Shown here piece by piece: positions 18,337-40,939 of a stretch of 64,000 nt of DNA (position 1 is its first letter; the number at the start of each line of letters is the position of its first letter). Both the position numbers and the translations under genes were made by a program. The stretch is from contig JAFWZG010000039.1 in the NCBI GenBank assembly GCA_017517385.1, positions 6,153-70,152 of the forward strand. Direction: 5' to 3'. This stretch comes from Akkermansia sp. (GTDB lineage: Bacteria; Verrucomicrobiota; Verrucomicrobiia; Verrucomicrobiales; Akkermansiaceae). A model generated the notes under the pieces. That model was not told the DNA's origin, searched no databases, and worked only from the letters and a program-made list of their open reading frames with translations.

Positions 18337-18354
18337 AGTACAATGCGTAACTTA

Positions 18355-20639: not shown

Positions 20640-20706
20640 AATATCAGTCAGCCTGCCAACAAATTACGTTGTGGTATTGCGTACTCTACGGTTATGTCGT
20701 TTTCTA

Positions 20707-21648
20707 TCAATCCTCTCGTTCAAAGGGGGATTTTAGAGGGAAGCGCGTTTCTAGAAAACGCACCACTTGCTCACGAGCCTCATCTGTAGAGAATTCCCCA
20801 TCATTGATGCAAAATAGGGCAGGTCGATAAGGAATCAAAATTTCAGGTGGTTGGAGGTTGGATAGATGCATGGAATCAATGCGGGCTATATGAAGTCTCT
20901 TCATAATCCGTTGGATTATAGTTTTGCTGACATCTTTCATCTTGGCCTGCTTTTTGACTAACGCATATAAGTGAAATAACAGACGTTGCAAGCATGCTTC
21001 ATTGCGAAATGGTTGATGGATAGTATAATGGAATAAATCAGAGAACTCCTTTTCACAATTAGCCAAGATGTTTTTTGTGTACGCATCCATATTGTGATGC
21101 GGTTCATAGCAACCGTAAGTAACGCCATAGCGTTGTTTAATAGTATTATAAGCGGCTTGTAAAGTTGTCCAATACAAATCTTCCCAAGGAGTGGTTTTTT
21201 TCCACCGGACTATGGGTTTTCCCATCCGTTCGTAAAAGAAAGACGGGGATACATTTCGTCCTACAAAACAGTCGTCGTTAGCATAAATAAAATGCTCTGC
21301 CAGATTGGGGATCTTATGCAAGCAGCACTCTAATGCCTGAGAATTAAAGCAGGGACGTGCAGATTCGGGAAGTATTTCGGAGTGGTCGACAATGGTAATT
21401 TTTTCGTGCGGGCGAAACCATTTCGGCACTTGATTATTGGTGACAATATAGATGTGGTGAATCCAGGGCATGTACATAGCCACGCTTCTGAGGCTGTATT
21501 TCAGCTCATCTACTTGCACATATCGACAATCTTCGTTGCCTTTTGCTGTTGCACCGCATTGTTGCATTCGAGCACACTTCTGCTGCGCGAACTTTGTATC
21601 GCTTCCATCACACCACAGATAGACTAAATCTATATCAAAGTTTTTCAT
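20707..21648 (-). CDS. Stealth family hexose-1-phosphate transferase
   Basis: CR1 IDLVYLWCDGSD. CR2 ELKYSLRSV...PWIHHIYIVT...FNSQALE...IYANDD. CR3 H...AYTK. CR4 FCIND. Confidence 0.9.
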   Translation of the reverse strand: MKNFDIDLVYLWCDGSDTKFAQQKCARMQQCGATAKGNEDCRYVQVDELKYSLRSVAMYMPWIHHIYIVTNNQVPKWFRPHEKITIVDHSEILPESARPCFNSQALECCLHKIPNLAEHFIYANDDCFVGRNVSPSFFYERMGKPIVRWKKTTPWEDLYWTTLQAAYNTIKQRYGVTYGCYEPHHNMDAYTKNILANCEKEFSDLFHYTIHQPFRNEACLQRLLFHLYALVKKQAKMKDVSKTIIQRIMKRLHIARIDSMHLSNLQPPEILIPYRPALFCINDGEFSTDEAREQVVRFLETRFPLKSPFERED

Positions 21649-21663
21649 GGTTTTATGGGGAAA

Positions 21664-21810
21664 TTATCGGGTTGATAACGGAATATATACGCATTTACAC
21701 CCAAAGAATTCAGCGCTGTGTTTCAGCACTGTATAACTAGCATACGCCAGTAAAAGCCCCCCGTAATTTCCTGTAAGAGGGTGAGTGAGAATCAATGTTT
21801 TTGCTTTCAT
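21664..21810 (-). pseudogene. 5' relic of a third polysaccharide pyruvyl transferase gene
   Basis: Translates MKAKTLILTHPLTGNYGGLLLAYASYTVLK..., matching MKKVYILTHPLTGNYGGLLQAYASYKTLE of 18355-19473, then diverges and stops after 48 codons. Not in the ORF track. Confidence 0.8.
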
Positions 21811-21824
21811 CCTTTAAAATACTA

Positions 21825-22829
21825 TCAGAACTCACGTACTCCCAGTTCTACTTCATACAGAGGTGAGAGTTTCTTCATTTTCCGAACTACAGCATTAAAC
21901 AGTAACCTGACAATCTTAGCGTAGCACAAGCAAAAAAAGTGATTCACATATGCACCGGCCAGTAGCCAAGAAGTAAGAAAAGCGCCATTAAGAGCTTTGC
22001 GCTGCCTGATTTCATCCTTCCATGAGAGCAGACTACACCCTCTAATGCGGCCCCACCAATTCAGCAGAGAATAAAAACGGAAGAACAGTTTTGCGGCCGG
22101 AGTACAATCTTTCTTAAGATACAACTCCTGATGACAAATAAAAGCCCCATTATAAGAGCTATCACGCCCCAGCATTTTTACAGAATAATTATGAGATGCG
22201 GACGTATCGCGCATTCTGTATTGAACAGTTGAACAATTTGCCACACCGATTGCAGGGTGTTGCATAGCGATGCGGCACCACGCAACATTATCCTCATACA
22301 TCTTAATGCCAAGCGGAAATAATTCATCATGACAAATGGCAGACTTACGAATAATACAACTTGAACTCATCGGGTCATTACTTGCCCCAAGGAACCAATT
22401 AACGGCCCTATATTCAACCTTACCTTTTATACCAGACGCAACCAATTTATCATCAATAACTGAGACCATCGAAGGGCGAGTATAAAACCACTTGTATTCA
22501 GGATAATCTCTGAAAAACTTTAATGCAATTTCTAAATGGTTGCATACCCATATATCATCACCATCCAAAAATGCAATGAATTCACCTCGAGCTTCTCGTA
22601 TTCCCTTGTTACGGGCTACACTTACTCCGGAATTACTCTGATGAAACACACGAAGTCTAGCATCTGCCTGTTTCGAAAGAATTTCAGCGGTTCTGTCCGT
22701 TGAGCCATCGTCAATAATGACTATTTCATAATCACCAAACGTTTGCTTATATACGGATTGCAATGTTCGCTCCAAATACTTCGCGACATTGTATACCGGA
22801 ATAATGACGCTAAAAACGGGAGTATTCAT
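21825..22829 (-). CDS. Glycosyltransferase family 2
   Basis: SVIIPVYN, IIDDGSTD, NSGVSVARNKG and FLDGDD motifs. Confidence 0.9.
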   Translation of the reverse strand: MNTPVFSVIIPVYNVAKYLERTLQSVYKQTFGDYEIVIIDDGSTDRTAEILSKQADARLRVFHQSNSGVSVARNKGIREARGEFIAFLDGDDIWVCNHLEIALKFFRDYPEYKWFYTRPSMVSVIDDKLVASGIKGKVEYRAVNWFLGASNDPMSSSCIIRKSAICHDELFPLGIKMYEDNVAWCRIAMQHPAIGVANCSTVQYRMRDTSASHNYSVKMLGRDSSYNGAFICHQELYLKKDCTPAAKLFFRFYSLLNWWGRIRGCSLLSWKDEIRQRKALNGAFLTSWLLAGAYVNHFFCLCYAKIVRLLFNAVVRKMKKLSPLYEVELGVREF

Positions 22830-22846
22830 AACACATTTAGAATTAA

Positions 22847-23752
22847 TTACACACTCTTAACTCTCATCTTAAAATACTCTGTCCAGTAAATCCATTTGAG
22901 GCGCCACAGGTAATGTCTAGCGACCGTATTCGGGTACATTATTGTTTTGGAAAACAAAGGCTGCACCACATCATCAATGGCAGAAACGATTTCCTCGCGG
23001 GTCCACCTGTTATCATATTGACTATCCATGATAGCAAATACGGTTTGCTCTGCAAAATCCCCACAATGTTCAGCCTGATAGCGAATACACTCCAGCGCTT
23101 TGTCATTGAGCATTTTCAAGCCGCCGTGAATGTAAACAACGCCACAATTTATCGGCTCCTCTGTATCATACAAGTACTCAGAACCCGAGGCTTTAATAAA
23201 ATGAGGGTCATAGCTATGACATGAGTCGATAGAAATCTTGAAATCCGTTGTGTTCCACTCATCATTCCGCAGGGGAGTACCATACCACAATACATCAGGA
23301 TCAGAGAAAAGCACCCTATCTGTCTCTGAAAGATAAAGAATGGCAGCCATCTTCTTCCCCCAGATGTGCTTTTCAGCCCAGGTTGTTAGTTCAGGCAGAG
23401 TATTTAGGTAAAAATCCGCACAGTGCTTCCAAGTCAGACATTCCACTTGGAGCCCCCGCTTTCGGAAATATCGAACACCATATTCCGGCTCCCAGGAACC
23501 GTCGGACACAATGACAACTCGAGAAGGCACAACTTCAGAATTACGATACAAACTAAACAACGACGCCTCTACCATGTCCAATGCAGATTTTTTACTGATG
23601 CTCAGGTACGTATAATCACCAACGCTCTTTTCTTTGGCCGGAATTCGGGCAGGAAACACTCTGGCGAGAACTCTGCACGCACGCACAAAGTTCCGCTGGC
23701 TCCAATCTCGCTTCCCCGAGACAGAGCGTATGAAATCTGAGTTATCTATCAC
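22847..23752 (-). CDS. Putative GT-A fold glycosyltransferase (GT8-like)
   Basis: First gene of the locus (GTG start). VLFSDPDVLW (DxD), INCGVV and AEQT motifs. Confidence 0.55.
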   Translation of the reverse strand: MIDNSDFIRSVSGKRDWSQRNFVRACRVLARVFPARIPAKEKSVGDYTYLSISKKSALDMVEASLFSLYRNSEVVPSRVVIVSDGSWEPEYGVRYFRKRGLQVECLTWKHCADFYLNTLPELTTWAEKHIWGKKMAAILYLSETDRVLFSDPDVLWYGTPLRNDEWNTTDFKISIDSCHSYDPHFIKASGSEYLYDTEEPINCGVVYIHGGLKMLNDKALECIRYQAEHCGDFAEQTVFAIMDSQYDNRWTREEIVSAIDDVVQPLFSKTIMYPNTVARHYLWRLKWIYWTEYFKMRVKSV

Positions 23753-23759
23753 GATTTAG

Positions 23760-23787
23760 ATTATATTTAAAGCTCGAAAATAAGCAA
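23760..23787 (-). promoter_or_regulatory. Promoter of the polysaccharide locus
   Basis: Minus strand TTGCTT, 16 bp, TATAAT, ending 7 nt before the GTG start. Confidence 0.55.
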
Positions 23788-23871
23788 GTCTATTCTGGTT
23801 CATGCCAGCTCAAAAAATGCCTATCACCTACGCGGCTCCCCCCTTTGCGTGGCGAGATGCCTAAAAGCATA

Positions 23872-23899
23872 CGGGTAGAGAAGTTGCCTTCTCTACCCG
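23872..23899 (-). terminator. Hairpin or terminator downstream of the SlyB-like gene
   Basis: Perfect 12-bp stem CGGGTAGAGAAG/CTTCTCTACCCG. Confidence 0.7.
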
Positions 23900-23925
23900 G
23901 AATATGAGAATCTAAATCACCGGCA

Positions 23926-24402
23926 TTAATACCCATCGGGTACAAAGTGAGCATCGGAACCGTGGTGGTAGTTACCGTGCATGCCGGCGGAAACGGGGCC
24001 GAACTCTTTGTATACGGGCTGTACGAAGGAGTAGGTAGCGCCGTTACGGCCGTCCACCTTCACGGTGACGCGCTGACAACGGGTGTTACCCATGGAATCG
24101 GTCAGGTAGCGACCGGCAAGAGCACCGGCTACACCGAAACCGGCAGTGGATACGATACGGCCGGAACCGCCACCAAGCATCTGGCCAAGGCCGGCACCCA
24201 GAACAGCACCCACACCGGTGCCAACAGCCTTAGAAGTGGAGGAGGTCTCACCCGTCACCTCATAGGCGGAAACTACAGTGGCGGGCAGCACCTGCTGAGT
24301 CACACCGATTTTGTTGGAAGAAACAGAACCGTAGCTGGAATCCCAAGCACAGGAAGAAAGACCAAGTGCAGCTGCCACAAGAAGAATGGTTGTCTTGTAC
24401 AT
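23926..24402 (-). CDS. Outer-membrane lipoprotein, glycine-zipper 2TM (SlyB/Pcp-like)
   Basis: Lipobox LSSC. GTGVGAVLGAGLGQMLGGGSGR...GALAG zipper. Confidence 0.85.
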   Translation of the reverse strand: MYKTTILLVAAALGLSSCAWDSSYGSVSSNKIGVTQQVLPATVVSAYEVTGETSSTSKAVGTGVGAVLGAGLGQMLGGGSGRIVSTAGFGVAGALAGRYLTDSMGNTRCQRVTVKVDGRNGATYSFVQPVYKEFGPVSAGMHGNYHHGSDAHFVPDGY

Positions 24403-24627: not shown

Positions 24628-26481
24628 TCAGGCGTTCTGCTCAGCTTCAGCAGCAGCCTTTTCAGCCTCAAGCTTCAGGCGAAGTTTCTCAGGAAGCTTG
24701 ACCTGAATGTGAATGTCACGCAGCTGATTAGGCTCAGCCGGAGCGGGAGACTCACTCATAAGGTCTGCGCCACGATTGTTCTTGGGGAATGCAATCACCT
24801 CACGAATGGATTCGCACTGCCCGATAAGCATCACGACACGATCCAGACCAAGGGCAAGACCACCGTGGGGGGGAGCACCGAAGGAGAATGCTGCCAGCAG
24901 GTGGCCGAACTGCTCCTCAATGGTGGCGTCATCCAAGCCAAGGGCGCGGAAGGTAGCATCCTGCAGATCCTTCTCGTGAATTCGGATAGACCCACCGCCC
25001 AGCTCATTACCGTTGAAGATAACGTCATAAGCCTCAGCGCAAAGATCCGTAGAAATCTCGCCCTTAAGCACCTTCTCCACATCCTCAGGAACAGGGCGGG
25101 TGAAGGGGTGGTGCACAGCGCAGAAGCGCTGCTCCTCGGCGTCCCAGCCGAAGAGGGGGAAGCGGTTCACCCAGAAGAGGTCAATGTCAGTATTGCCCTT
25201 GAGCAGTTCCATGAACTCACCGCAAGCCAGACGCACACGGCCGAGGATGGTGCAGCTCTGCTCCCACTCACCGGCGGCGAAGAAGATGCAGTCACCGCTC
25301 TCGATGTTCAGGCGCTCGATGAGGGCATCAATCTCAGCCTGAGAAAGGCGCTTGGTAATGGGGCTCTTCCACTCCTTGGTGTTAGCGACGTCACGCACCT
25401 TGATGTAAGCAAGGCCCTTAGCACCGGCCTCAATAGCGGTCTGAGTGAGGGAATCCACCTGACCAACGGAGGGGTTGAAGCCCTTGGCGTTAATAGCCTT
25501 CACCACGCCACCATTGGCAATAGCACCGGAGAACACGCGGAACTCGCTGTTGGCGAAGATGTCAGAGCAATCCGTAATCTTCATTTCGAAACGGCGCTCA
25601 GGCTTGTCAGAACCATACTGATCCATGGCGTCCTTCCAAGTCATGCGGGGGAAGGGAGTGACGATGTCACGCCCCACGGACTCCTTGAACACGCGCTTAA
25701 GCATGTTCTCAATCCATGCGTACACGTCCTCAGGGGTAATGAAGGAGGCCTCGATATCAATCTGAGTGAACTCGGGCTGGCGGTCTGCGCGGAGGTCTTC
25801 ATCGCGGAAGCAGCGGGCCACCTGGAAGTACTTCTCCATACCGGCCACCATAAGCAGCTGCTTGTACTGCTGAGGAGCCTGAGGAAGAGCGTAGAACGTG
25901 CCGGGGTTCAGGCGGCTGGGCACGAGGAAGTCACGAGCGCCCTCGGGTGTGCTCTTGGAGAGGATGGGGGTTTCAATCTCAAGGAAGCCCTGCTCATCCA
26001 AGTAGTCACGCATGGTCTTGGTAATGCGGTGACGCAGAATCATGTTGCGCTGCATGGGGGTACGGCGCAGGTCGAGGAAACGGTACTTCAGGCGGATATC
26101 CTCGTTGGCGATGTTGCGATCCAGCTGGAAGGGGAGCACAGCCGCGCGGTTGAGCACGTTCATGGAGGCGGCGTCCACCTCAATCTCACCGGTAGCCAAA
26201 TCAGGGTTTGTGGCGTCCACCTCATCCGTCTTCAAGCGGGCTACAACCTTGCCACTCACCTGAATAACGGATTCCACGCGAAGATTTTCAGCATCATTAG
26301 CCAGCTGAGCATTATTCTCAGGGTGGAAAACCACCTGAGTTTTGCCAGCGCGGTCACGGAGGTCGATGAAAATCACACCACCGTGGTCGCGAACGGTATC
26401 CACCCAGCCCACAAGCGTCACCTGCTTGTCGACATCAGAAAGGCGGAGCTCATCGCACGAATGTGTACGGTAACTGTTCAT
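24628..26481 (-). CDS. aspS: Aspartate--tRNA ligase, probably non-discriminating (Asp/Asn)
   Basis: Start reassigned to MNSYRTHSC (26481). RDHGGVIFIDLRD, LPQAPQQYKQ, FRDEDLRADRQPEFTQ, GAD insert and GAPPHGGLALGLDR motifs. Confidence 0.97.
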   Translation of the reverse strand: MNSYRTHSCDELRLSDVDKQVTLVGWVDTVRDHGGVIFIDLRDRAGKTQVVFHPENNAQLANDAENLRVESVIQVSGKVVARLKTDEVDATNPDLATGEIEVDAASMNVLNRAAVLPFQLDRNIANEDIRLKYRFLDLRRTPMQRNMILRHRITKTMRDYLDEQGFLEIETPILSKSTPEGARDFLVPSRLNPGTFYALPQAPQQYKQLLMVAGMEKYFQVARCFRDEDLRADRQPEFTQIDIEASFITPEDVYAWIENMLKRVFKESVGRDIVTPFPRMTWKDAMDQYGSDKPERRFEMKITDCSDIFANSEFRVFSGAIANGGVVKAINAKGFNPSVGQVDSLTQTAIEAGAKGLAYIKVRDVANTKEWKSPITKRLSQAEIDALIERLNIESGDCIFFAAGEWEQSCTILGRVRLACGEFMELLKGNTDIDLFWVNRFPLFGWDAEEQRFCAVHHPFTRPVPEDVEKVLKGEISTDLCAEAYDVIFNGNELGGGSIRIHEKDLQDATFRALGLDDATIEEQFGHLLAAFSFGAPPHGGLALGLDRVVMLIGQCESIREVIAFPKNNRGADLMSESPAPAEPNQLRDIHIQVKLPEKLRLKLEAEKAAAEAEQNA

Positions 26482-26542
26482 AATATGATGCTTGATAGAG
26501 ATTACGGCCGGCCAAACAAACACGTAGGCCGAAGCAGCCAAG

Positions 26543-26570
26543 ATTCTACTCTTTGCAGGCCTATTGTCAA
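26543..26570 (-). promoter_or_regulatory. aspS promoter
   Basis: Minus strand TTGACA, 16 bp, TAGAAT. Confidence 0.65.
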
Positions 26571-26603
26571 GACAAATTTGGCCTCTTAAGGAAGAGCTGC
26601 CAC

Positions 26604-26643
26604 AAAAAAGCAAATACGGCGGAGCCTTGTACAAACTCCGCCG
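26604..26643 (-). terminator. Terminator closing the Hsp70-like cluster
   Basis: CGGCGGAG/CTCCGCCG stem, then TATTTGCTTTTTT on the minus strand. Confidence 0.65.
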
Positions 26644-26688
26644 CAAAAATAATCTTTTTCGCCGTTTAGCGACAGGTGGCGAAAAGCG

Positions 26689-28359
26689 TTAGCCCCTTCC
26701 CTCCAGCTTGGCGCGAATGAGCTCTGCGCACTCGGTGTGCCTGTAACGTTCAGCCACGCGAATGGGGGTGCTGCCATAGCCATTGGGCTTATCCGGCTGA
26801 ATGGTCGGAGCAGCCAGAAGCGCCTTCACACAGCCGGCATACCCCTTGTAAGCGGCGTACCAGAGAGGAGGCCATCCGTTATCGTTCGGTTTGTTCACAT
26901 CCGCACCGGCAGCAATAAGAAGCTTCAGGCAAGGTACCATGGTTTCACGCAGAGCAGATTGCAGAGGAGAACGGCCAGAGCTATCAAGCTTGTGAACATC
27001 CGCGCCGGCGTCTATTAGGGCCTTCAGGCATGCGGCATCATTTACTTCAAGTGCCAGGAAGAGGGGAGTCCTCCCGTTATCATCTGTACAATCCGGAGAA
27101 ACGCCGCCGCGGAGAATAGCTTCCACGCTTTGGGCATCCTTCCTCTCCACTGCGTCAAAAAGCATAGCAGGAGTCGCCTCCACACTATTAACTGCACTAT
27201 TAACCGGGGGCAATTCCTCACCCACAAAAAGGGTTGATAAAATCGTATTTGCGATATCCGAGACTTCGTCATCCTTGCTAACCTCCGCTAATGATGACTG
27301 CCACTTGCGATACGGAACCAGCATAAGAGCACCCTCAGCCGCAGCCTCCGGGAAGGACGCCCAAGTACGCGTCTTCAATCCGATACCGCCAGCCAACTGG
27401 GAGGAAATGTATGTCAACACGGGAGATGAACCTATGAGCAATACCATTTCAGGCTTTTCTTTAGCATCCGCCTGCTTGTCAATATCCTGTATGGCCGAGG
27501 CTATACGCTCCACGTCCCGTGTCAGCAATTTCTCGAAATCCGCGCGGTTAATATCGGCGGCTGTCAGTACTCCATTTTTAACAACACGGAAGACGCAGGC
27601 CTCAGCGGCCGACAGCCTGCGCTTCATCTCGCGCACACCGGCAAGAACAGCTGTAGCAGGAGACAACACACCCCCTGCCCCCTGAGCTTTAATCAATTCG
27701 CCCACATAAGAAGCCAACTTTTCATCAATAGCCTCACCACCCGCAGCATTTCCTAAATGAACACTGCGAGTTAAATACCCCTCCGCAGAACTGCGCACCA
27801 CATGGGCAATCTCCGGCGTACCACCGCCCCAATTCACCACCAGAGCACTTGTATTGAACGCCTTTGCGCCACTATAGCAACAATAGGCAGCGCCGGCTGC
27901 CTCCACCTCCGGCACAATCATTACCCGGGGAAATCCAGCGCTTAATGCGGCGGCAGACAACTCTTCCTTCTGAGCGGCCTGAAATCTTGCAGGACACGTC
28001 AGCACGGCCCCTGTAATTTCTACAGCCTCCTGATTTTCATCCTCCTTTACTCGGGCCAGAATCTTTTTCAGGAACTCACGCAGCAAATCACAGGCCTTGT
28101 ACTGCCCGAGCAGACACTTATTACTCCCCAAATGGGATTTGAACGCACGGCAATAAGAGGCCGGATTTTCCAAGCCCATCTCGTCAGCATCCTCACCAAA
28201 CACCAACTGCCCATCCTCACAGAGGAAAGCAGTAGAGGGAATAGGTGCATCATAGCGGCCAAGACGGAAGAAATACGGGCGACCGGTGTTCACATCAGCC
28301 GCCGCAAGGGTTTTTGACGTGCCGAAATCTATAGCAAGTGTTACTTCTTTTTTTGTCAT
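26689..28359 (-). CDS. Hsp70-like ATPase domain (degenerate) fused to ~5 ankyrin repeats (Hsp70-D)
   Basis: AIDFGTSKT, VLTCPARF..AQK, PEVEAAG, NWGGGTPE, GGEAID, RADFEKL, LIGSS. No substrate-binding domain. C-terminal GRTPLF, GRSPLQ and GWPPLW ankyrins. Confidence 0.85.
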   Translation of the reverse strand: MTKKEVTLAIDFGTSKTLAAADVNTGRPYFFRLGRYDAPIPSTAFLCEDGQLVFGEDADEMGLENPASYCRAFKSHLGSNKCLLGQYKACDLLREFLKKILARVKEDENQEAVEITGAVLTCPARFQAAQKEELSAAALSAGFPRVMIVPEVEAAGAAYCCYSGAKAFNTSALVVNWGGGTPEIAHVVRSSAEGYLTRSVHLGNAAGGEAIDEKLASYVGELIKAQGAGGVLSPATAVLAGVREMKRRLSAAEACVFRVVKNGVLTAADINRADFEKLLTRDVERIASAIQDIDKQADAKEKPEMVLLIGSSPVLTYISSQLAGGIGLKTRTWASFPEAAAEGALMLVPYRKWQSSLAEVSKDDEVSDIANTILSTLFVGEELPPVNSAVNSVEATPAMLFDAVERKDAQSVEAILRGGVSPDCTDDNGRTPLFLALEVNDAACLKALIDAGADVHKLDSSGRSPLQSALRETMVPCLKLLIAAGADVNKPNDNGWPPLWYAAYKGYAGCVKALLAAPTIQPDKPNGYGSTPIRVAERYRHTECAELIRAKLEGRG

Positions 28360-28387
28360 TGCAGGAAAAAAATATCTTTAGTCCATA

Positions 28388-30310
28388 TTAATATGCGGTA
28401 GCGGCAGCTTTCAGCAAAGCCTCACACTCAGCATGCCCATACCGCCCGGCCAAACTCAGCGCGGCATCTCCCTCCGGAGTCTGCTTATGAATATCAAGAC
28501 CACCAGAGGTAAGAAGCAGGCGCAGAACAGAGGCGGCCCCGGTACTGGCGGCATGGTGCAGCAGAGTCCAACCATGCTCATCCACGCGGTTCACATCTGC
28601 CCCGGCATGCAGAAGCAGCCTCAAGCAATCCAGCTTTTCAGCGAAGGCGGCGGACCACAGAGGGGTCCAGTTCAGCTCATTTGCGGCCTCTAAGCTTGCG
28701 CCGGAATATAAGAGATTACGGAGCACCCTGGCATGCCCGGCATGAGCAGCCTCGTGCATAGGAGTATTGCCGCCATAGCCGGCCTTCGCCGGGTCTATCC
28801 CGGGAGAGAGCAGCAGCATCCCCACAATAGCCTCCTGCCCACAGGCAGCGGCACGGCATAAAGGCAGTTCGCCTCGGCTATTGGGCCGGTTCACATCCAC
28901 TTGCCCGGCATTCAACAGCTCACGAACAACTGCCTGCTTATCAGTATAAGTTGCTGCCCAAAGAGGAGTCCAGCCCACAGCATCAGCTGCGTTCACGTCC
29001 CCGCCGTTAGCTATAAGCTTACGCAGCAACTGCACATCCCCCTCTGCTGCAGCGGAGACAACGTCCGCCGGGGTGGTGGGAAGCGGCTTCGCGGGGGGAG
29101 GCTCAGTAGCAGGGCCCGGAGGAACAGGAGGCAATGCCGGATCCGAAGGAACAGGCGGTAACACCGGCCCCGGAGGAACAGGCGGTAGCACGGGCTCTCC
29201 AACCGGCTCAGTCGGAACGGGCACGAACTCAGCCTCAAAAAGCTCTGTAAACAGCTTCTGCTGCTGAAGCTTAATACATGCGCCCTTTACTGACGCCCCG
29301 ACAGAACGGTACAGATGCACTTTAGCATTAGGAAGTTCCGCCGCAATCATGCGTCCGGCTGCAGGAATATCCGCCCCCGGTCCACTCAGGAGGATCTGCT
29401 TAGGAGGCGCGCCTCGAAAATTTGTTCTGACAAAGCGGCGCAAGGCTGCTCCGGCCTGCTTCATGTAAGGAGCGAGAAGCTCCTCATACTCCTCAACCGT
29501 ACCGGGCACCGTAAGCTTCTTCCCTCTCAAACTCAGGCGAATTTCAGCTTTACCCTCTGTGAGTAGCTGTTTTCTGAACTCGCGAACGAGATTCATAAAA
29601 CGGGGCCAGGAGAGCCCGGTCACCTTAGTCTGAACGGCCATTTTAGCAAGTAGGTGCATCGCGAGGGTATCATCCAGCTCTTCGCAGCCTACAGAGCACA
29701 CATTAAAAGAACGCCCCAGCTTACAGGAAGAAAAATCGGAGGCCACGGTCACCTGCACGGCTTCCAGAGATCCATCCCCCCAGAACAGCATCACAACATC
29801 CTGTGCAGCAAACACCTTGCGCCCGCCGTACATGCAGACGGAAACCAGCGCCTCGGACTGAGATATGAGCTCTACCGCAGGAAAACCAGCCGCCAGAGCA
29901 GCCTCCTTCAAAAGCTGCCGCTGTGCAGCGCTGAATGCGGCAGGACAAGTCAGCATCACGCCGGAAATCTGACGCCCCTCAGCCATAGAGGAGCCATTCA
30001 CTTTGCGAAGAATCCACGCAAGATGCTCCCGCACTAAATCAGCCGCGGTAAACTCCCCGAGAAGAGGTGCCGGGCTCCCCAGTTTCATCTTATATGCGCG
30101 GCAGTAACCGGCAGGCTCCTCAAGGCCCAGCTTCTCAGCCTCATCACCAAAACATAAGCGCCCACCCTTCATCAGATAAGCAGAAGAGGAGGCACAAGCG
30201 CCACTACTGCCCAAGCGAAAAAAACGCGGCTTCGCACCCGGCACAACCTCAGCTACAATAGATGAGGTTGTGCCGAAATCCACGGCCAGTCTGATATATT
30301 CGGCAGACAT
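28388..30310 (-). CDS. Hsp70-like ATPase domain (strongly degenerate), Pro-rich linker, ~7 ankyrin repeats (Hsp70-C)
   Basis: AVDFGTTSS, LTCPAAFSAAQR, SQSEAL, FWGDGSLE, GCEELDD, LSGPG. Polyproline linker. GWTPLW, GELPLC, GNTPMH and NWTPLW ankyrins. Confidence 0.85.
   Translation of the reverse strand: MSAEYIRLAVDFGTTSSIVAEVVPGAKPRFFRLGSSGACASSSAYLMKGGRLCFGDEAEKLGLEEPAGYCRAYKMKLGSPAPLLGEFTAADLVREHLAWILRKVNGSSMAEGRQISGVMLTCPAAFSAAQRQLLKEAALAAGFPAVELISQSEALVSVCMYGGRKVFAAQDVVMLFWGDGSLEAVQVTVASDFSSCKLGRSFNVCSVGCEELDDTLAMHLLAKMAVQTKVTGLSWPRFMNLVREFRKQLLTEGKAEIRLSLRGKKLTVPGTVEEYEELLAPYMKQAGAALRRFVRTNFRGAPPKQILLSGPGADIPAAGRMIAAELPNAKVHLYRSVGASVKGACIKLQQQKLFTELFEAEFVPVPTEPVGEPVLPPVPPGPVLPPVPSDPALPPVPPGPATEPPPAKPLPTTPADVVSAAAEGDVQLLRKLIANGGDVNAADAVGWTPLWAATYTDKQAVVRELLNAGQVDVNRPNSRGELPLCRAAACGQEAIVGMLLLSPGIDPAKAGYGGNTPMHEAAHAGHARVLRNLLYSGASLEAANELNWTPLWSAAFAEKLDCLRLLLHAGADVNRVDEHGWTLLHHAASTGAASVLRLLLTSGGLDIHKQTPEGDAALSLAGRYGHAECEALLKAAATAY
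29111..29191 (-). repeat. Three 27-bp tandem repeats encoding (V/A)LPPVP(PG/SD)P
   Basis: Plus-strand units AGGGCCCGGAGGAACAGGAGGCAATGC, CGGATCCGAAGGAACAGGCGGTAACAC and CGGCCCCGGAGGAACAGGCGGTAGCAC. Confidence 0.8.
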
Positions 30311-30472
30311 ATTATCTAAGTAATTTGTGAGAAAATCCGTTTAATACTAGGCGATTCCCAGCACCACACCGGATAAAGCTTACCGGATTCCCTTATACCA
30401 TACGCATTATCGCGTTGTCAATCATATTTTGAAGTGCATATACCCCCCTGCCGAAAAAATAGAACGCCAGCC

Positions 30473-30625
30473 TCACGAATTATTCTGGAACAAAGCGTTG
30501 TAGATACCACGCAGCAGCAGAGCAGCCAGAACAGTCACCACAAAACCACCACCGGCCTCCATGCGAATAAGCACAGCAGCCATTATCACCATAGCGAAAA
30601 TCATTATAAACAGTACTACTTTCAT
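30473..30625 (-). CDS. Unannotated 50-aa two-TM membrane protein (paralogue of 35396-35542)
   Basis: MKVVLFIMIFAMVIMAAVLIRMEAGGGFVVTVLAALLLRGIYNALFQNNS*. Shares MK.V....ME.G....L.LRGIY.A...N with the other copy. Below the ORF-track cutoff. Confidence 0.8.
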   Translation of the reverse strand: MKVVLFIMIFAMVIMAAVLIRMEAGGGFVVTVLAALLLRGIYNALFQNNS

Positions 30626-30751: not shown

Positions 30752-30793
30752 AAAAAAACTAACACCGCCACTCCCGCACAAGGAGAGGCGGTG
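30752..30793 (-). terminator. Terminator after Hsp70-B
   Basis: CACCGCC-(T/A)-CTCC stem followed by TTAG and T7 on the minus strand. Confidence 0.7.
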
Positions 30794-30854
30794 CTGCAAA
30801 TACTGGTTAAAACAGCGGAAGTTACGGAGAATCCACGCAAGAAAACTTGCATGA

Positions 30855-32807
30855 TTATTTATTGAAAAGGCCGCTAAACCATTTCTTAATCTTCTTAGCA
30901 CGGAGATATGCAGAGGCCCCACTGACGCCGGCTTTGCTGGCGTCTTCCAGCAAGCGAAACCCTCTACGCTGAAGCTCAACAGAACCGGTCTGATCCGCTT
31001 GCTCCAGATAGAGCCGTGCCAATTCATACCCGGCGCACTTATCGCCCTTACTAAGGGCGATGGAATACCACTTCGCCGCGGCGTTCAAATCCTTTTTCAC
31101 ACCGTAACCCAGCCAATAGCAAAGGCCCATACGGCGGGCGGCTGAAGCATCCCCACGCTCTGCCTTTTTCTTGTATTCCGCTGCGGCCTGCGCCGGCTCA
31201 TAAATTATCCCCGCTTCGTCAATATACGGGGTCATTTTTTCCTCATTGAAATTTCTTTCACACTTCCAATCATATGCGCCACAGTTTTCGACCACGCCAA
31301 GATGACGCACAGCACTCATCTTTACAATTTTGGCCTTCGTGCTCCCCAGATAAATAGCATCATCCAGCCACTTATGAGCAGAAGTAAAGTGGAACTGCTT
31401 CAACATAGCCACGGGAGTGTCATCTATAATGCAGAGATGACAAGCCCCCAGCTGCGCCATAGCCTCCACGTTACCACGTACAGCCGCACGCCGATACCAT
31501 TTCGCGCAAAGAATATAATCCTTCGTCTTCTTGAGCATCACCGAGGCAGCGTTTTCCAACGCGCCGGGCTCGCCCCGCACCGCTGAGGCTGCCAACCAGT
31601 TCTCCACGCCATTCCTCAACAGCTCCTCTATTTCGTCAGCATAAGGTTCTTTCGGCTTAACCGGCTGCGCGGGAGGCGGAGGATAAGGCGTAGGCGCAGG
31701 CGTAGGCGTGGGGGGACGCTTCACCGGCGCCTCCGGGGCCTTTGCCTTTTCAGGCGGACGCGTTGTAAGAGCCGCTCCCATCACCACGGCTGCACGAGCC
31801 TTGTTCCACGTTCGGGCCGGCAAACCGGTAACCCGCTCAAGCTCCTTACGTATGCAGGGAATAAGCGCAGTACCGCCCACCAACACCAGCATTTCAGGCT
31901 GTAGGGATTCCGGAAGCCCGCTTAACAGGTTCTTTACGGCATCCGCCGCAGCGGATACATCAGAATGTATACTCTTCTCGAAATCAGCACGTTTCACCTG
32001 AGCAGAAAGCAGCCCACCGGACGTCACCTGATGAAAAGCCCCGGTCTCTGCAGAGGAAAGCACCATCTTCAGATTGCGAACGCCCTGAGCAAAACGCTGC
32101 CAGGACATATGCTCCGGCAGAGTCTTGCCCTCCAGTTGTTCCATGACAAGCTCACTGAGGCGATCATCAAACACCTCGCCGCCCATGCTGTTATTGCCGA
32201 AGGCTGCGCGCTTCTGAGCATTGATTTTCTTGCCACTGCGAGAAACGAGCGCCACGTCTAGTGTACCGCCACCCCAATCCACCACCAGGGCATTATTCTT
32301 AAACGCCTGAGCGCCACTGAAGTGGCAAAAGGCAAAGCCCGCAGCCTCCGGCTCAGTAATGAGTTTTACTTCCGAAAGCCCGGAGGCAAGCGCCGCATCC
32401 GTCAGCTGTTTTTTCTGAGCAGCACTGAAGTTCACCGGGCAGGTCAGCACAGCACCGCTGATTTTCATTTTATACAGAGTGGCATCATCCTTTACCCGGC
32501 GCACGAGGTGAGATAAGAACTCACGCACCAAATCCTGTGCTGTATAATGCCCCAGCACGGGCGCTGTACTACCCAGCTTCATCTTAAATGCACGGCAGTA
32601 GCAGGAGGCGTTCATCTCCGCCATATCGTCCGCATCATCACCAAACAAGAGGCTGCCGTCTTCCTGCAAATAAGCAGTTGTAGGAATCAAATCCGCATTT
32701 CGGCCCATTTTCAGAATACGAGGCTCGCCACGCTCATCAGCATAAGCAATGAGCGTCTTGGTTGTACCGAAGTCTATGGCTAAAGTGATGGAAGGAGAGG
32801 TACTCAT
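30855..32807 (-). CDS. Hsp70-like ATPase domain (intact motifs), Pro-rich linker, Sel1-like repeats (Hsp70-B)
   Basis: AIDFGTTKT, TEPEAAG, DWGGGTLDV, GGEVFDD, LVGGTALIP, AVVMGAA. Sel1 motifs AKWYRRAAVRGN and GLCYWLGYGVKKDLNAAAKWY. Confidence 0.88.
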   Translation of the reverse strand: MSTSPSITLAIDFGTTKTLIAYADERGEPRILKMGRNADLIPTTAYLQEDGSLLFGDDADDMAEMNASCYCRAFKMKLGSTAPVLGHYTAQDLVREFLSHLVRRVKDDATLYKMKISGAVLTCPVNFSAAQKKQLTDAALASGLSEVKLITEPEAAGFAFCHFSGAQAFKNNALVVDWGGGTLDVALVSRSGKKINAQKRAAFGNNSMGGEVFDDRLSELVMEQLEGKTLPEHMSWQRFAQGVRNLKMVLSSAETGAFHQVTSGGLLSAQVKRADFEKSIHSDVSAAADAVKNLLSGLPESLQPEMLVLVGGTALIPCIRKELERVTGLPARTWNKARAAVVMGAALTTRPPEKAKAPEAPVKRPPTPTPAPTPYPPPPAQPVKPKEPYADEIEELLRNGVENWLAASAVRGEPGALENAASVMLKKTKDYILCAKWYRRAAVRGNVEAMAQLGACHLCIIDDTPVAMLKQFHFTSAHKWLDDAIYLGSTKAKIVKMSAVRHLGVVENCGAYDWKCERNFNEEKMTPYIDEAGIIYEPAQAAAEYKKKAERGDASAARRMGLCYWLGYGVKKDLNAAAKWYSIALSKGDKCAGYELARLYLEQADQTGSVELQRRGFRLLEDASKAGVSGASAYLRAKKIKKWFSGLFNK

Positions 32808-32895
32808 CTTGTAAAATAATCAGTAGGTTTATAAGTTAACGAAAGCCCTTTTCAGCTTGTATGACGCCCCAACAGGCAGAATTGTTCATGCAATT

Positions 32896-35349
32896 TTAAT
32901 ATCTCGCACGCCTCATGGCCGCCTCCAGCAAGCGAACACACTCAGTGTAACCTCTGCTCCGAGCATACTCCAAATGCGTTTTCCCATATTGGGTTGCGTG
33001 TACATTTATATGCGGGTACTGTAATAAAGCCTCCACCATCGGCACGTCATTATTTTCTATAGCCACCCTAAGAAGGCTTTCACTAGCTGAATTGACCAAT
33101 TCATACTTGGCGCCGGGAGCTGTCACAAATATCCGTACAGCTTCCGCGTCATGCTTCTCCACTAATTTGGCAATGAAATAATTATCACAGCGGTATCCCT
33201 TCTGTACAAGCATTTGCAAATCCGCACCGTTCAATGTACCATGCATTATACGAGCCTCCAGCGCACTTGCAACAGGGCTACTGGTAAATACTTCACCATT
33301 CCAAGATGATACCAACCACTCATTACTTGCCATACCCGGATACTCCACGAACAACAACACAAACATAAAAGCACCTAGGAGTATCCCGCCCATCCCTATG
33401 AAGATGGATTTTGTATAGTCAGTATGCCTACGGCCACAATATCTGGCAAACATTATTAGGCCGCATAAATAGACCAACCCAATAAGCACCCCTAGCAATA
33501 CATGACCATTGTATATCATATAGGTCAGCACCAAGGCCAGTAGAACAAGCAGCAGCAACAACATCTTCGCCACATACCAGAACATGCGCAGCTTGGCCCT
33601 CTTACACCCGGCAACAGAAGCACGATAACATAACGACAGAGGCGATTTAGCCGTATGCAAAAAAAGCTCATAAAGTGCTTCCGGGTGCCCATTATCAGCA
33701 GCAGTTTTATACCACGTCAATGCATCATCGGAGCTCTTTGCCACAGCGGTGCCATTTTCATACATCTTAGCTATGCGGTACTGAGCATCAGTCACGCCCT
33801 TATCAGCCGCCCTTCGCAGCCAAAGGTATGCCTGACCGGCATCTGCGTCGACGCCGATACCATCCTCATAACAACGCCCAAGCGCCCACATACCATAAGG
33901 ATGCCCTTTCTCCGCGGACTTCCGATAATACCCCACCGCTTTCATGGAATCAGGGCTGAGCAGAGTCCCCTTCTCTGCCCCTATGCCTAGGCGGTACAGA
34001 GCATCAGCATTTCCGGCATCCGCCGCGCGCTGATATAGTCCGAGAGCCTTTTTCGCATCCTTTGTAGTGCCAATGCCTTCTTCATAGCAAAGGCCAAGGC
34101 TGAACATAGCGGGGCAATAATCACGGGCAGCAGATTTCGTGAGCCACATGACCCCCTCAGCTTCATTATGATTATTCAAGCAACTCTTCCCCACCTCATA
34201 CTGAGCGCGCCTGTAACCACTCTTGGCCAGCACAAGCAGTTTCCCGGAATCCTGAGGAAGCGGCTCGGAATCCACCTCCTCAGTCGCAGTCGCCTCTGAA
34301 TTAGCAAGAAGAGCTGCGCCCATTACCACAGCCTCACGTGCTTTTGCCCATGTACGGGCAGGAAGGCCTGTAACAGCCTCCAGCTCGCGGCGTATGCAGG
34401 GGATAAGAGCTGTACCCCCCACTAGTACCAGCATCTCCGGCTTACAATCTGCCGGCAGCCCCGCCATGAACTCCTTCACCGCGGCTACAGCAGCAGTCAC
34501 GTCTCTCGCTATCAGTTTTTCGAACGTGGCACGCTTCACCTTCAGAACAAGCGGGCTTCCTCCCACCACCATTCGCAATACACCCTCTTCACCGGCAGAA
34601 AGCGACACTTTCAGAGAGCGCACATTTTTCATCAGCTCCGGCATACTAAGGCTGCTCACCTCCATACGAGAAGCCAGCTCGCCCAGCACATACTCACCTA
34701 AACAATCATCAAAAACCTCGCCACCCACCGTATTGAGGCCAAAGGCATAGCGCCTATGGGAACGAATACTTTTCCCTTGGCGGGTAATGAGTGCTACGTC
34801 TAGCGTGCCACCTCCCCAGTCCACCACCAGAGCATTTTTTCGGAAAGCCTCTGTGGTGCAGCTGAAACAGAAGGCACTACCGGCAGCCTCCGGCTCCGTC
34901 ACAAACTCCACCTCCGGCAGCCCCGCGGCCAAAGCGGCTTCTCGCAGCTGGTGAATCTGCGCTTTGCTAAAATCCACCGGGCAAGTCAGCACCGCACCAT
35001 TTATCTGCACGCCAAGCATTGTGGCATCGGCCTTCACCTTCTGCAGCAAGTACGCCAGGTACTCCCGCACCAGCTCCTGTGCCGTATAACGCCCCAATAC
35101 AGGAACCTTGCCTCCCAGCTTCATCTTAACACCCCGGCTGTAATTCCCGGGATCTATCACAGCCATATCGTCCGCATCCTCGCCAAACAGCAGGCTACCG
35201 TCTTCCTGCAAATACGCGGTCGTCGGTATCAAATCCACATTTCGCCCCATGCGCATAACGCGGGGCTCGCCCTTGTCATCAGCGTAGGCCACAAGTGTTT
35301 TCGTCGTTCCGAAATCAATTGCCAGAGTAATACCCGAATGATAGCTCAT
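32896..35349 (-). CDS. Hsp70-like ATPase domain (intact motifs), ~6 Sel1 repeats, 3 TM helices, ankyrin repeats (Hsp70-A)
   Basis: AIDFGTTKT, TEPEAAG, DWGGGTLDV, GGEVFDD, LVGGTALIP. Sel1 e.g. AMFSLGLCYEEGIGTTKDAKKALGLYQRAA. Hydrophobic block MLLLLLVLLALV...LFVEYP. Terminal ankyrins. Confidence 0.88.
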   Translation of the reverse strand: MSYHSGITLAIDFGTTKTLVAYADDKGEPRVMRMGRNVDLIPTTAYLQEDGSLLFGEDADDMAVIDPGNYSRGVKMKLGGKVPVLGRYTAQELVREYLAYLLQKVKADATMLGVQINGAVLTCPVDFSKAQIHQLREAALAAGLPEVEFVTEPEAAGSAFCFSCTTEAFRKNALVVDWGGGTLDVALITRQGKSIRSHRRYAFGLNTVGGEVFDDCLGEYVLGELASRMEVSSLSMPELMKNVRSLKVSLSAGEEGVLRMVVGGSPLVLKVKRATFEKLIARDVTAAVAAVKEFMAGLPADCKPEMLVLVGGTALIPCIRRELEAVTGLPARTWAKAREAVVMGAALLANSEATATEEVDSEPLPQDSGKLLVLAKSGYRRAQYEVGKSCLNNHNEAEGVMWLTKSAARDYCPAMFSLGLCYEEGIGTTKDAKKALGLYQRAADAGNADALYRLGIGAEKGTLLSPDSMKAVGYYRKSAEKGHPYGMWALGRCYEDGIGVDADAGQAYLWLRRAADKGVTDAQYRIAKMYENGTAVAKSSDDALTWYKTAADNGHPEALYELFLHTAKSPLSLCYRASVAGCKRAKLRMFWYVAKMLLLLLVLLALVLTYMIYNGHVLLGVLIGLVYLCGLIMFARYCGRRHTDYTKSIFIGMGGILLGAFMFVLLFVEYPGMASNEWLVSSWNGEVFTSSPVASALEARIMHGTLNGADLQMLVQKGYRCDNYFIAKLVEKHDAEAVRIFVTAPGAKYELVNSASESLLRVAIENNDVPMVEALLQYPHINVHATQYGKTHLEYARSRGYTECVRLLEAAMRRARY

Positions 35350-35395
35350 AATGATATGTCAGGAGAGAGTGAAAGACGGCATAGCTGCGCCATGC

Positions 35396-35542
35396 TCAGT
35401 TTTTGTACATAGCACTGTAAATACCTCGTAAAATCAAACAAGGAACAACAGCAAAATAAGTGGGAGCACCTACTTCCATACATAAAAGCACGACAGCTAC
35501 TGTTAATATAACACCAATAATCGCAAATACAACAATTTTCAT
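35396..35542 (-). CDS. 48-aa two-TM membrane protein
   Basis: MKIVVFAIIGVILTVAVVLLCMEVGAPTYFAVVPCLILRGIYSAMYKN*. Start reassigned to 35542 by alignment with the paralogue. Confidence 0.8.
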   Translation of the reverse strand: MKIVVFAIIGVILTVAVVLLCMEVGAPTYFAVVPCLILRGIYSAMYKN

Positions 35543-35666
35543 CTCATTTTTCCTTTCTTTTTTATTTTTTTCTGGGAGCAAGCCATATAGGCTAACTTTT
35601 ATTCACCATTCTGGTTACTCCGACGCTATCACCTCCCGGCACGTTCAAGCATTTCATTCAGTCCAT

Positions 35667-35705
35667 AAAAAAAATCCCCAGCACAGGTAACCCATGCGCC
35701 AGGGA
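35667..35705 (-). terminator. Terminator after the second dynamin-like gene
   Basis: Minus strand TCCCTGGCGCA/TGTGCTGGGGA (with G-U pairs) followed by T8. Confidence 0.7.
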
Positions 35706-35798
35706 GTGTGATAAGGAAATGTAAAAACACTACATAATGACCCACTCAGAAACCACAAAAAATCTGATAAAAACAGGCGAGAACAATGGAAGTATTCA

Positions 35799-37424
35799 TC
35801 AGTGAGAAGAGGTAATCATGAGGTGAGAGTATACGGCACGCACTTTAGCAGCACATTCGCGGGCAAACTTATTAGGCACAAACGCAAGCAGGCCGGCAAT
35901 CTGCTGCAAGGTCTCCACATTATCAGCCGGCCGTGGCTGTGCTTCCGTAAGTACGAGGTTGGCACAGCGATCCACAATCTCCAACTGGGCAGGATTCAGC
36001 CAGCGGCTGCGCTCCTTCCAGTCCTGAAGAAGATACAAGGCATCGTCCATCAGCTGAACCCGCTCTGCTATGGAGCAGCGGAGCATATCAATGGAGAGTA
36101 ACGCTTCTTCCATGCGGGCAAGCTCAGCCCGGGCCCGAGAAGTACGCTCCTCCGTCTGCTTCCGCAGCTGAGTAGAGCGCAGCTCGTTAGCGACCTCGGA
36201 GAAGTAATCCACCTCCATTCGCTGAGCCTCAATAACGTCATCCAGAGCATAATTCACCTCTTGGAGGAGAGTCTGCACCTTACTGCGAATCTGCCGCAGG
36301 CTGATAACGGCCCTGCGCTTGAAGAATGAAGTATCCAACAGGTGGCGAAGGCGGGGGATGCCACTGAGCTGCATGGTCATAGCGGCGGCATCCTCCGCGG
36401 AGGCCGGCTGCTTATCATACAAGTAATGGAGCATCATGCGGAACGAGGAAAGGGGCAGCTCCAGCTCACGCAGAGAGCACCACAGGGCGTAAATGGCAGG
36501 GTATTTTTCCTGCCAGCGCACTTCATTGCGCTTTACTGCTTTTCGCAGGTCATCAGCAGTATCAAATGAGGCTAGTAAATCAAGCACGTCCAGCCAGAAG
36601 CTTCGCGGAGCTACAGCGGCAAGCAAGCCCAAAGGTGCGCTCACCGGCACAACCTCAGAAAGCAGGTGAGAAAACTGGCCGCGAAGAGTCGCCACATGCT
36701 CCTCCACGGTAGCAAGCGCCTCATCCGCCGAAGCCCCGGCGGAGGCATTCCAATAAAGGTCATCCCAGAGGTGCATCACGCCTACGCAGTTATACGTCTC
36801 ATACCCCTGCAGGCCCATCTGACGGAACTTTTCAAGGGCCTGAACGTCCTCTTCACGCCCAACATGGCCGAATACATAGAGCAGAGCATCCGTATTTCCA
36901 CCGCAAAGGAACTGCTGCGCCACGGCCTCATGGAAATCCACCGCGGCGCCGATACCGGGAGTATCAATGATATTCATCTGGCTCACGATGGGGGCATCGG
37001 AATAGAACTCCAGGTGGTTAACGCCTGCTACCATCTGCTCCACATCTGAGCCTTTTCCGCTCCATTCCTTGAGCCTAGCGAGGGGGTAACGCTCCGGCTG
37101 AGAGTTTTTCCAATAAGCAGAGAATTCCTCACAAGCGGAGCCGGTGCCGTAAGTAATGTGGTTCACGGTGGCAGTCGTTTCCTCGGTACCGGTGACGGCC
37201 AACTTCTTACCGACCAGCGCATTAATGATACTACTTTTACCCCGCTTCATGTAGCCGAACACGGCTATTCTGAAGGGGTTATCCATATTACGCACGAGCT
37301 CACGCAAGCCCAGCTCCCATTCATGCACCTGCACACAGGGGGCGAGCATATCAGCAAGCTTGAGCAGGTTCTGTGCATATTCCCGGCGGTAACGCACGGC
37401 ACCCAGTTCTACTTGTTCGGACAT
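35799..37424 (-). CDS. Bacterial dynamin-like GTPase (IniC/DLP2-like)
   Basis: G1 GYMKRGKSS, G2 TEETT, G3 IDTPGIG, followed by a helical coiled-coil stalk. Confidence 0.88.
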   Translation of the reverse strand: MSEQVELGAVRYRREYAQNLLKLADMLAPCVQVHEWELGLRELVRNMDNPFRIAVFGYMKRGKSSIINALVGKKLAVTGTEETTATVNHITYGTGSACEEFSAYWKNSQPERYPLARLKEWSGKGSDVEQMVAGVNHLEFYSDAPIVSQMNIIDTPGIGAAVDFHEAVAQQFLCGGNTDALLYVFGHVGREEDVQALEKFRQMGLQGYETYNCVGVMHLWDDLYWNASAGASADEALATVEEHVATLRGQFSHLLSEVVPVSAPLGLLAAVAPRSFWLDVLDLLASFDTADDLRKAVKRNEVRWQEKYPAIYALWCSLRELELPLSSFRMMLHYLYDKQPASAEDAAAMTMQLSGIPRLRHLLDTSFFKRRAVISLRQIRSKVQTLLQEVNYALDDVIEAQRMEVDYFSEVANELRSTQLRKQTEERTSRARAELARMEEALLSIDMLRCSIAERVQLMDDALYLLQDWKERSRWLNPAQLEIVDRCANLVLTEAQPRPADNVETLQQIAGLLAFVPNKFARECAAKVRAVYSHLMITSSH

Positions 37425-37447
37425 AGGAATATAGGTAAAAAGTTTGA

Positions 37448-37966: not shown

Positions 37967-37997
37967 GGTTCCAATTACTTCAGGCGTTTAAATGGTA

Positions 37998-39872: not shown

Positions 39873-39913
39873 AACGGTAAACTTTGCGGTTAAGTTTAAA
39901 AATTGTTTTAAGG

Positions 39914-40936: not shown

Positions 40937-40939
40937 CAT

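Follow-up and report, generated by a model that had tools for sequence, protein, structure and literature searches.

Hsp70-derived pseudoenzymes are familiar from eukaryotes (Ssz1/HSPA14 and, in part, Hsp110), and to our knowledge bacterial ones have so far only been predicted. The subject here is a pair of adjacent Hsp70-like genes, C and D, in a 64,000-nucleotide stretch of the genome of an Akkermansia sp. (assembly GCA_017517385.1, contig JAFWZG010000039.1, positions 6,153 to 70,152; this whole stretch is called the window). With two neighbouring genes, A and B, they form a set of four paralogues, all on the minus strand. As judged from sequence comparison, C-D would be a new bacterial form of the known theme of atypical, non-hydrolysing Hsp70s.

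The Hsp70s Ssz1 and Sse hydrolyse little or none of the ATP that they bind and act via contacts of their nucleotide-binding domains (NBDs) (PMC8476630). Ssz1/HSPA14 of the ribosome-associated complex resembles what is proposed for the pair in being a stable partner subunit that holds ATP with little or no hydrolysis and contacts the NBD of another Hsp70 (PMC8476630); D may be an atypical Hsp70 of this Ssz1 type, with ATP bound and left unhydrolysed. Ssz1/HSPA14 differs in being eukaryotic, in its beta-type substrate-binding subdomain, in its J-protein partner and in the absence of ankyrin repeats, whereas in C-D each partner is itself a degenerate Hsp70 domain, nucleotide binding is probably absent from C, and no J-protein partner was seen. 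Hsp110/Sse1 is comparable in its marginal ATPase activity and in functioning via heterodimers of NBDs (PMC8476630), but has a full substrate-binding domain, serves as nucleotide exchange factor for canonical Hsp70 and has its catalytic motifs largely intact.

Genes for dynamin-like proteins of the cyanobacterial "chaperone group" are linked to genes for DnaK-domain proteins (PMC5827413). C and D nest inside the dynamin-linked Hsp70 family without substrate-binding domain, of which A, B and the protein P0007 are intact members located beside dynamin pairs. They differ from this family in the loss of the catalytic set, and dynamin genes do not lie beside the pair in most carrier genomes. The Hsp70-like CnuD of type III CoCoNuT systems has degenerate nucleotide motifs and is predicted to bind ATP/ADP and hardly to hydrolyse it (PMC11090510). 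It thus has in common with C and D a prokaryotic Hsp70-like domain with degenerate nucleotide motifs, but it combines nucleotide- and substrate-binding domains, is accompanied by McrBC-type GTPases and HEAT repeats, and belongs to another lineage and context. In DO-GTPase/GAP1-N2 conflict systems, paired GTPases occur with Hsp70, GrpE and a further Hsp70 without the peptide-binding domain (PMC7159879); this comparison was set aside, as their GTPases are of another TRAFAC family (not dynamins). A GAP1 protein is also needed in those systems, and the comparison bears on the cassette around A and B described below, not on C-D. Using PADLOC, no match of C or D to the Leo proteins of Eleos (LeoA/LeoBC) was obtained, and a neighbouring dynamin of 541 amino acids (aa) matched weakly (1e-8 to 1e-10). 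The other PADLOC results, generic ankyrin matches (PDC-M72A) and a very weak PDC-M61B match on A and B, are not evidence of defence. A literature search on Akkermansia, dynamin and Hsp70 returned nothing relevant.

The four genes, and the domains of C and D, have the following positions in the window:

32896-35349, minus strand: gene A, 817 aa, with Hsp70 domain, Sel1 repeats, membrane segments and ankyrin
30855-32807, minus strand: gene B, 650 aa, with Hsp70 domain, proline-rich linker and Sel1 repeats
28388-30310, minus strand: gene C, 640 aa, with putative pseudo-Hsp70 NBD, proline-rich linker and about six ankyrin repeats
29261-30310, minus strand: NBD of C, residues 1-350
29075-29260, minus strand: proline-rich linker of C, residues 351-412, with PVLPPVPPGP repeats
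28391-29074, minus strand: ankyrin array of C, residues 413-640, about six repeats (Pfam Ank_2 1.2e-32, Ank 2.5e-29)
26689-28359, minus strand: gene D, 556 aa, with putatively crippled Hsp70 NBD, disordered linker and four to five ankyrin repeats
27310-28359, minus strand: NBD of D, residues 1-350
26692-27174, minus strand: ankyrin array of D, residues 396-556, four to five repeats (Pfam Ank_2 5.6e-25)

Both open reading frames (ORFs) of the pair are full length (640 and 556 aa), as had been stated in the original prediction, which was made from the DNA letters alone; D starts 28 nucleotides downstream of the stop codon of C. The Pfam profile HSP70 (PF00012) matches C with 21.9 bits, barely above the cut-off of 20.6, and D with 59.1 bits; D also matches DnaK sequences in the PDB at an E value of 6e-15. 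The HSP70 profile match stops at about position 370 of 599 and ankyrin repeats come next, arranged in tandem in both proteins (Pfam Ank_2 and Ank, E values of 1e-19 to 1e-32). The Hsp70 substrate-binding domain is missing from all four genes, with NCBIfam DnaK/HscA scores far under the cut-offs, and a separate, normal DnaK is encoded elsewhere in the same genome. The linker of C differs in length among orthologues.

Residues of the nucleotide pocket were mapped by alignment to the genome's own DnaK and are given in E. coli DnaK numbering. The motifs quoted originally for all four proteins are indeed present in the sequence:

Phosphate-1: IDFGTTKT in A and B; VDFGTTSS in C (residues 10-17, 30260-30283); IDFGTSKT in D (28309-28332)
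Connect-1: EPEAA in A and B; ISQSEAL in C (29846-29866); VPEVEAA in D (27895-27915)
Phosphate-2: DWGGGTLD in A and B; FWGDGSLE in C (29762-29791); NWGGGTPE in D (27811-27840)
Adenosine loop: LVGGT in A and B; LSGPG in C (29363-29395); LIGSS in D (27412-27444)

A and B are canonical, with D8, G10, T11, T12, K70, E171, P172, D194, G196-198, T199, D201, G341 and G342 all in place. C retains D8, T11, T12 and K70 and carries the changes E171Q, P172S, D194F, G197D, T199S, D201E, K270R, S274L and G342P. D retains D8, K70, E171, the GGG loop, T199, K270 and S274 and is changed by P172V, D194N, D201E and G342S. The EVEAA of D had been listed among the altered motifs; the change at P172 is real, but the catalytic E171 is still there. 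When a competent Hsp70 is expected to have D8, K70, E171, D194, T199 and D201 as well as the GGG and GG loops, four of these six residues are missing from C, and D194 and D201 from D. Orthologues of C (81-90% identity) retain ISQ(S/T)EAL, FWGDG(S/T)LE and LSGPG, and those of D (78-87% identity) retain PEVEAA and NWGGGxPE; at the T199 position, four close D orthologues have T and four have V. The alignment to DnaK and the conservation of the losses in orthologues thus uphold the contrast first drawn between an intact A/B pair and a C/D pair that lacks residues needed for hydrolysis, and C and D would both have lost ATP hydrolysis.

A profile built from the four NBDs was searched against 1.84 billion representative proteins and gave 602 clusters at E<=1e-30, in which the domain is always N-terminal and the C-termini vary widely in length. 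In a census of the best 150 family representatives of these 602 clusters together with the sequences of this study (n=159), all six catalytic residues were found in 141 sequences; the substantial exceptions were C-type or D-type proteins only, and the remaining ones were fragments, apart from one or two sequences with conservative changes. The family active site is nearly invariant outside C and D, and since so many members keep all six residues while every substantial exception is of C or D type, their losses exceed chance or family noise.

The two partners are not equally eroded. Constraint on the pocket was expressed as column entropy, in which 16 pocket positions were compared with all other alignment columns. 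The pocket value was 0.10 vs 2.18 for the other columns in the whole family, 0.07 vs 1.12 in A/B-like domains (P <1e-4), 0.75 vs 1.33 in D-type domains (P 0.002) and 1.16 vs 1.28 in C-type domains (P 0.23). Because C-type pocket columns vary like any other column, C can be regarded as a pseudo-domain without a selected pocket: the C-type pocket is probably under no residual constraint and nucleotide binding probably lost, while D-type proteins probably bind nucleotide and do not hydrolyse it. D-type proteins retain GGG, GAG or GSG as well as K270, S274 and GG, and their lineages differ in which of K70, E171, D194, T199 and D201 have been lost. The description of the second pair as dead therefore stands in so far as both lack hydrolysis residues, but it does not hold for C and D as a single class, given the unequal pocket entropies and the loops kept by D-type proteins.

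Distant orthologues occupy the same chromosomal site in L029, L030 and G092, and further representatives are P0240, P0253, P0271 and P0281. The distant C-type proteins are eroded much further than C of the window: phosphate-1 reads IEPGAAET or IDVGAAET, K70 is replaced by V or I, and E171 by A or D, the phosphate-2 segment is NWSADRLE, HWTAGRME or NWSPARVE, and the GG loop is GD or GE. The C-type proteins at L029 8109-9974, L030 8081-9970 and L063 3920-5707 have in common the changes of T199 to Arg, N13 to Glu and T11-T12 to Ala-Ala. In these proteins of other species, the new side chains may plug what was once the phosphate site.

The original prediction was to be given up if the NBDs of C and D evolved neutrally and were often disrupted in relatives, and the opposite was observed. 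The ratio of nonsynonymous (dN) to synonymous (dS) substitution rates, calculated by the Nei-Gojobori method, was 0.07-0.11 for the NBD and 0.07-0.13 for the ankyrin array of C, and 0.10-0.16 and 0.06-0.15, respectively, for those of D. The linkers gave 0.2-1.06 (0.24-1.06 for that of C). For the intact NBDs the values were 0.075-0.08 (B, same genome pairs) and 0.14-0.22 (A). No internal stop was seen in C or D in any of about ten carrier genomes, nor in any copy from the genus survey. In the 28 loci that lack the pair, the 1.5 kb following the saccharopine dehydrogenase gene contain other genes and no remnant of C or D. Both NBDs are thus under purifying selection and were never found disrupted, as expected of genes that are kept rather than decaying. 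Whole-gene dN/dS of A, at 0.35-0.66, is above that of its NBD; the Sel1/membrane/ankyrin portion (32896-34284) evolves much faster than its ATPase domain. Matches from the genus in G034 and G054 proved to be ordinary Hsp70 paralogues with canonical motifs and were rejected as C/D-type.

An AlphaFold2 (AF2) model of the C domain, with a predicted local distance difference test score (pLDDT) of 90.6 and a predicted template modelling (TM) score of 0.87, indicates that this domain keeps the Hsp70 NBD fold. The top 50 Foldseek hits of the model were all Hsp70 NBDs (TM 0.73-0.84), the best being DnaK (0.80-0.84), and the Ssz1 structure 4gni was among the fold matches. In the AF2 model of full-length D, the NBD has a pLDDT of about 70-94 and the helix-pair repeats of the ankyrin array 82-95, and the linker (residues 356-392) is predicted to be disordered (pLDDT <50).

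In a maximum-likelihood tree (support given as ultrafast bootstrap/Shimodaira-Hasegawa-like approximate likelihood-ratio test), all C-type and D-type domains form one clade (98/95), which divides into a C-type (99/96) and a D-type branch (100/98) of identical internal branching. The mirrored order points to a single duplication followed by co-divergence of both genes. The C/D clade nests among A, B and other cassette-type domains; the grouping of C and D with A, B and P0007 has a support of 93/96 in this tree and of 99 in a quicker version. As D201E occurs in all but one member of the clade and D194N in most, loss of the catalytic Asp pair probably preceded the duplication into C and D; that of K70 and E171 probably came later, in both partners of the same sub-lineage.

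The surroundings of the genes bear on the question whether C and D belong to a larger system. In most carrier genomes (L026-L030, G092), the pair occurs on its own, flanked by the saccharopine dehydrogenase gene and aspS. In the window, the following elements were found on the minus strand:

30823-41002 (about), minus strand: inserted cassette comprising C39-like peptidase, dynamin-like 1, GrpE-like, dynamin-like 2, micro-ORF, A and B
39914-40759, minus strand: C39-like peptidase, upstream of A
37998-39872, minus strand: second dynamin-like GTPase, upstream of A
37448-37966, minus strand: small GrpE-like ORF, upstream of A
35799-37424, minus strand: dynamin-like GTPase, upstream of A
30473-30625, minus strand: micro-ORF upstream of C for a membrane protein of 50 aa, with a 48-aa paralogue upstream of A
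30392-30421, minus strand: promoter-like site before C (TTGACA, 18 nucleotides, TGgTATAAG with extended -10)
26615-26645, minus strand: terminator-like hairpin after D, a 13-bp stem followed by a T run

A hairpin after B (30763-30794) aligns with the terminator directly 3' of the saccharopine dehydrogenase gene in L026-L028, from which it follows that the cassette was inserted between the stop codon of that gene and its terminator. The cassette is missing from this site in L026-L030, is present at a different locus in L031, lies on a different contig from the pair in G092 and adjoins C-D only in the window's close kin, L068-L070. Intact family members stand beside paired dynamin-like GTPases in the window, L031 and L068-L070. 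The pair is carried by 6/101 sampled species of the genus; in two of these, G120 and G124, both an A/B-like domain and a strong dynamin pair are absent, and in G127 and G144 the pair is present without A/B-like domains, with only an unrelated dynamin cluster. This cluster (G127:C43:27637-31812 and G144:C47:42673-46848) consists of three dynamin-like genes (696, 662 and 402 aa) and has no family-type Hsp70 domains. A genome scan with a single protein returned four close loci, three from Akkermansia sp. and one from an uncultured Verrucomicrobiales bacterium.

Within the promoter-like site before C, both hexamers, the extended -10 TG and 15/18 spacer bases are identical in four genomes, and the sequence around it varies. 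The ORF paralogues of about 50 aa encode membrane hairpins (MKVVLFIMIF..., MKIVVFAIIG...), with one before each Hsp70 pair, that of A within 35350-35798. The micro-ORF upstream of C occurs in L027, L028, L068 and L069, and the intergenic space of L029, L030 and G092 is too short for it. Although adjacent to A and B in the window, C and D are therefore not simply the dead half of a four-gene system, as their description as the second pair had implied, but an older, separate two-gene unit with its own promoter-like site and terminator-like hairpin, and the C-D unit would work independently of the A-B/dynamin cassette.

Downstream of D, a promoter-like site for aspS is located at 26543-26570. The longest aspS ORF (24628-26646, with TTG at 26646) overruns both this site and the D terminator; as it does in relatives, translation most likely begins with the ATG at 26481 (MNSYRTH). 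The site 3' of the saccharopine dehydrogenase gene is variable in the genus (L077 2810-4226, L080 2982-4214): one species has a 272-aa zinc-ribbon ORF resembling a restriction enzyme, followed by a Sel1-like ORF, and another has rpsA. The region from 12000 to 24000 of the window contains glycosyltransferase genes and has a GC content of 0.42-0.46 vs about 0.55 elsewhere; L026 and L030 carry different genes downstream of aspS, and a hypervariable glycan locus appears to adjoin C-D.

C and D themselves diverge fast. Between the window and L029/L030, flanking proteins are 94-98.5% identical, and C and D only 33-39%. The dN of the pair is 0.68-0.84 vs 0.01-0.12 for flanking genes, and its dS among close relatives is two to three times that of the flanks. 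Either old allelic classes have been swapped by recombination or there have been bursts of fast change. For the window (30855-39872) and L068, dS was 0.014 and 0.003 for dynamins 1 and 2, respectively, 0.08 for A and 0.77 for the NBD of B, with 0.024 for C and 0.16 for aspS; such a mosaic in one genome pair shows that recombination is active at the locus and points to recent tracts.

The explanation that we consider probable is that C-D is a non-catalytic, co-evolving pair, with the Hsp70 fold as interaction platform and the ankyrin arrays as the part that binds a partner. Both proteins would descend from a large family of ATP-hydrolysing Hsp70s without substrate-binding domain and with variable C-terminal repeats, and would be co-transcribed, co-evolving cytoplasmic proteins with the NBD tied to the ankyrin array by a flexible linker. 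C most likely binds no nucleotide, its pocket being lost as a selected feature. D would keep the phosphate-clamping glycine loops and the adenosine contacts without the catalytic Asp pair, and most likely holds nucleotide as a structural ligand or stays locked in one state. Purifying selection would keep the fold as a platform, most plausibly for pairing of C and D via their NBDs, and this platform would position the two ankyrin arrays on a partner. The loss of ATPase activity, nucleotide binding by D, the C-D heterodimer and the ankyrin target are all deduced from sequence. Of the roles first proposed for the pair (decoys, scaffolds or constitutively set switches), the underlying notion of retained non-catalytic proteins agrees with the selection and the conserved losses, and any one of the three may apply.

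Several points weigh against this explanation. The clustering of C-type with D-type domains could be inflated by long-branch attraction, the AF2 models were made from shallow alignments of 12-13 sequences, and the pairing of C with D is deduced from adjacency and co-divergence, both of which linkage alone would yield. At short time scales the ankyrin recognition positions are not more variable than the framework among close orthologues (6/30 vs 45/165 in C, 6/20 vs 28/110 in D), and an arms-race signal on the ankyrin surfaces was rejected for want of such an excess. Asn or Glu can still ligate metal, and with D8, K70, E171, the GGG loop and T199 in place, D may be a slow or partner-stimulated ATPase. 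Taken further, D and, less plausibly, C would be working ATPases with an atypical site in which Asn176 and Glu183 replace the two Asp and turnover is slow or triggered by a partner. The residues just named, together with K270 and S274 and the above-average conservation of D-type pocket columns, are in favour of this; that it is nevertheless unlikely is suggested by the Val at the T199 position in half of the close D orthologues, by other D-type proteins that lack K70 and E171 in lineages persisting under the same selection, and, for C, by the broken glycine loop (G197D) and the change of GG to GP. Wilbanks and colleagues reportedly found in 1994 that substitutions of D199 or D206 in Hsc70 lower kcat, the turnover number, by one to two orders of magnitude, which also counts against an atypical ATPase; PDB entries 1qqm and 1qqn are mutants of that kind.

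It is quite improbable that C and D act as subunits, regulatory or decoy, of the adjoining A-B/dynamin/GrpE-like cassette within one four-gene system. The two units are adjacent in the window and L068-L070, a paralogous micro-ORF and leader precede both pairs, and the C/D clade nests among cassette-type NBDs, but no A/B-like domain accompanies C-D in G120, G124, G127 or G144, a strong dynamin pair is missing from the first two of these, and in G092 the cassette is on another contig. Moreover, a terminator and then a separate promoter-like site lie between B and C, and the cassette is an insertion between the saccharopine dehydrogenase stop codon and terminator. That C and D are functionless, decaying relics, pseudogenes in the making, has next to no probability: eroded catalytic motifs, the very fast divergence between species within well-conserved flanks and the occurrence in just six of the sampled species would fit, but dN/dS values of 0.07-0.16 in NBD and ankyrin domains alike contradict it, and no copy has a broken reading frame, the promoter-like site has been conserved, C and D have co-diverged across deep branches, and the 28 loci without the pair hold no remnants in the 1.5 kb after the saccharopine dehydrogenase gene.

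A more far-reaching version of the non-catalytic pair, which we regard as speculative and rather unlikely, is that C-D is an obligate heterodimeric, non-hydrolysing sensor or decoy of which deeply diverged allelic forms (33-39% identity inside flanks of 94-98.5%) are held by frequency-dependent selection. If true, a disarmed Hsp70 switch would have given rise to a hypervariable locus that sets specificity for proteins of phages, competitors or the host, and bacteria would have in C-D their counterpart of the immune decoys built from pseudoenzymes.

Returning to the pair as a non-catalytic platform, a single genome holds a natural series, from the intact A and B via D, a probable non-hydrolysing binder, to C, whose pocket appears free of constraint; orthologues in other species add further stages of erosion, all under purifying selection. 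The series opens the questions of what an Hsp70 NBD fold does without ATP turnover and of how the widespread Hsp70 family that accompanies dynamins uses ATP. For Akkermansia, a gut genus of health interest, the C-D locus is among the fastest-diverging genes, and the pair would show how a bacterium can put an enzyme fold to new use as a non-catalytic part.

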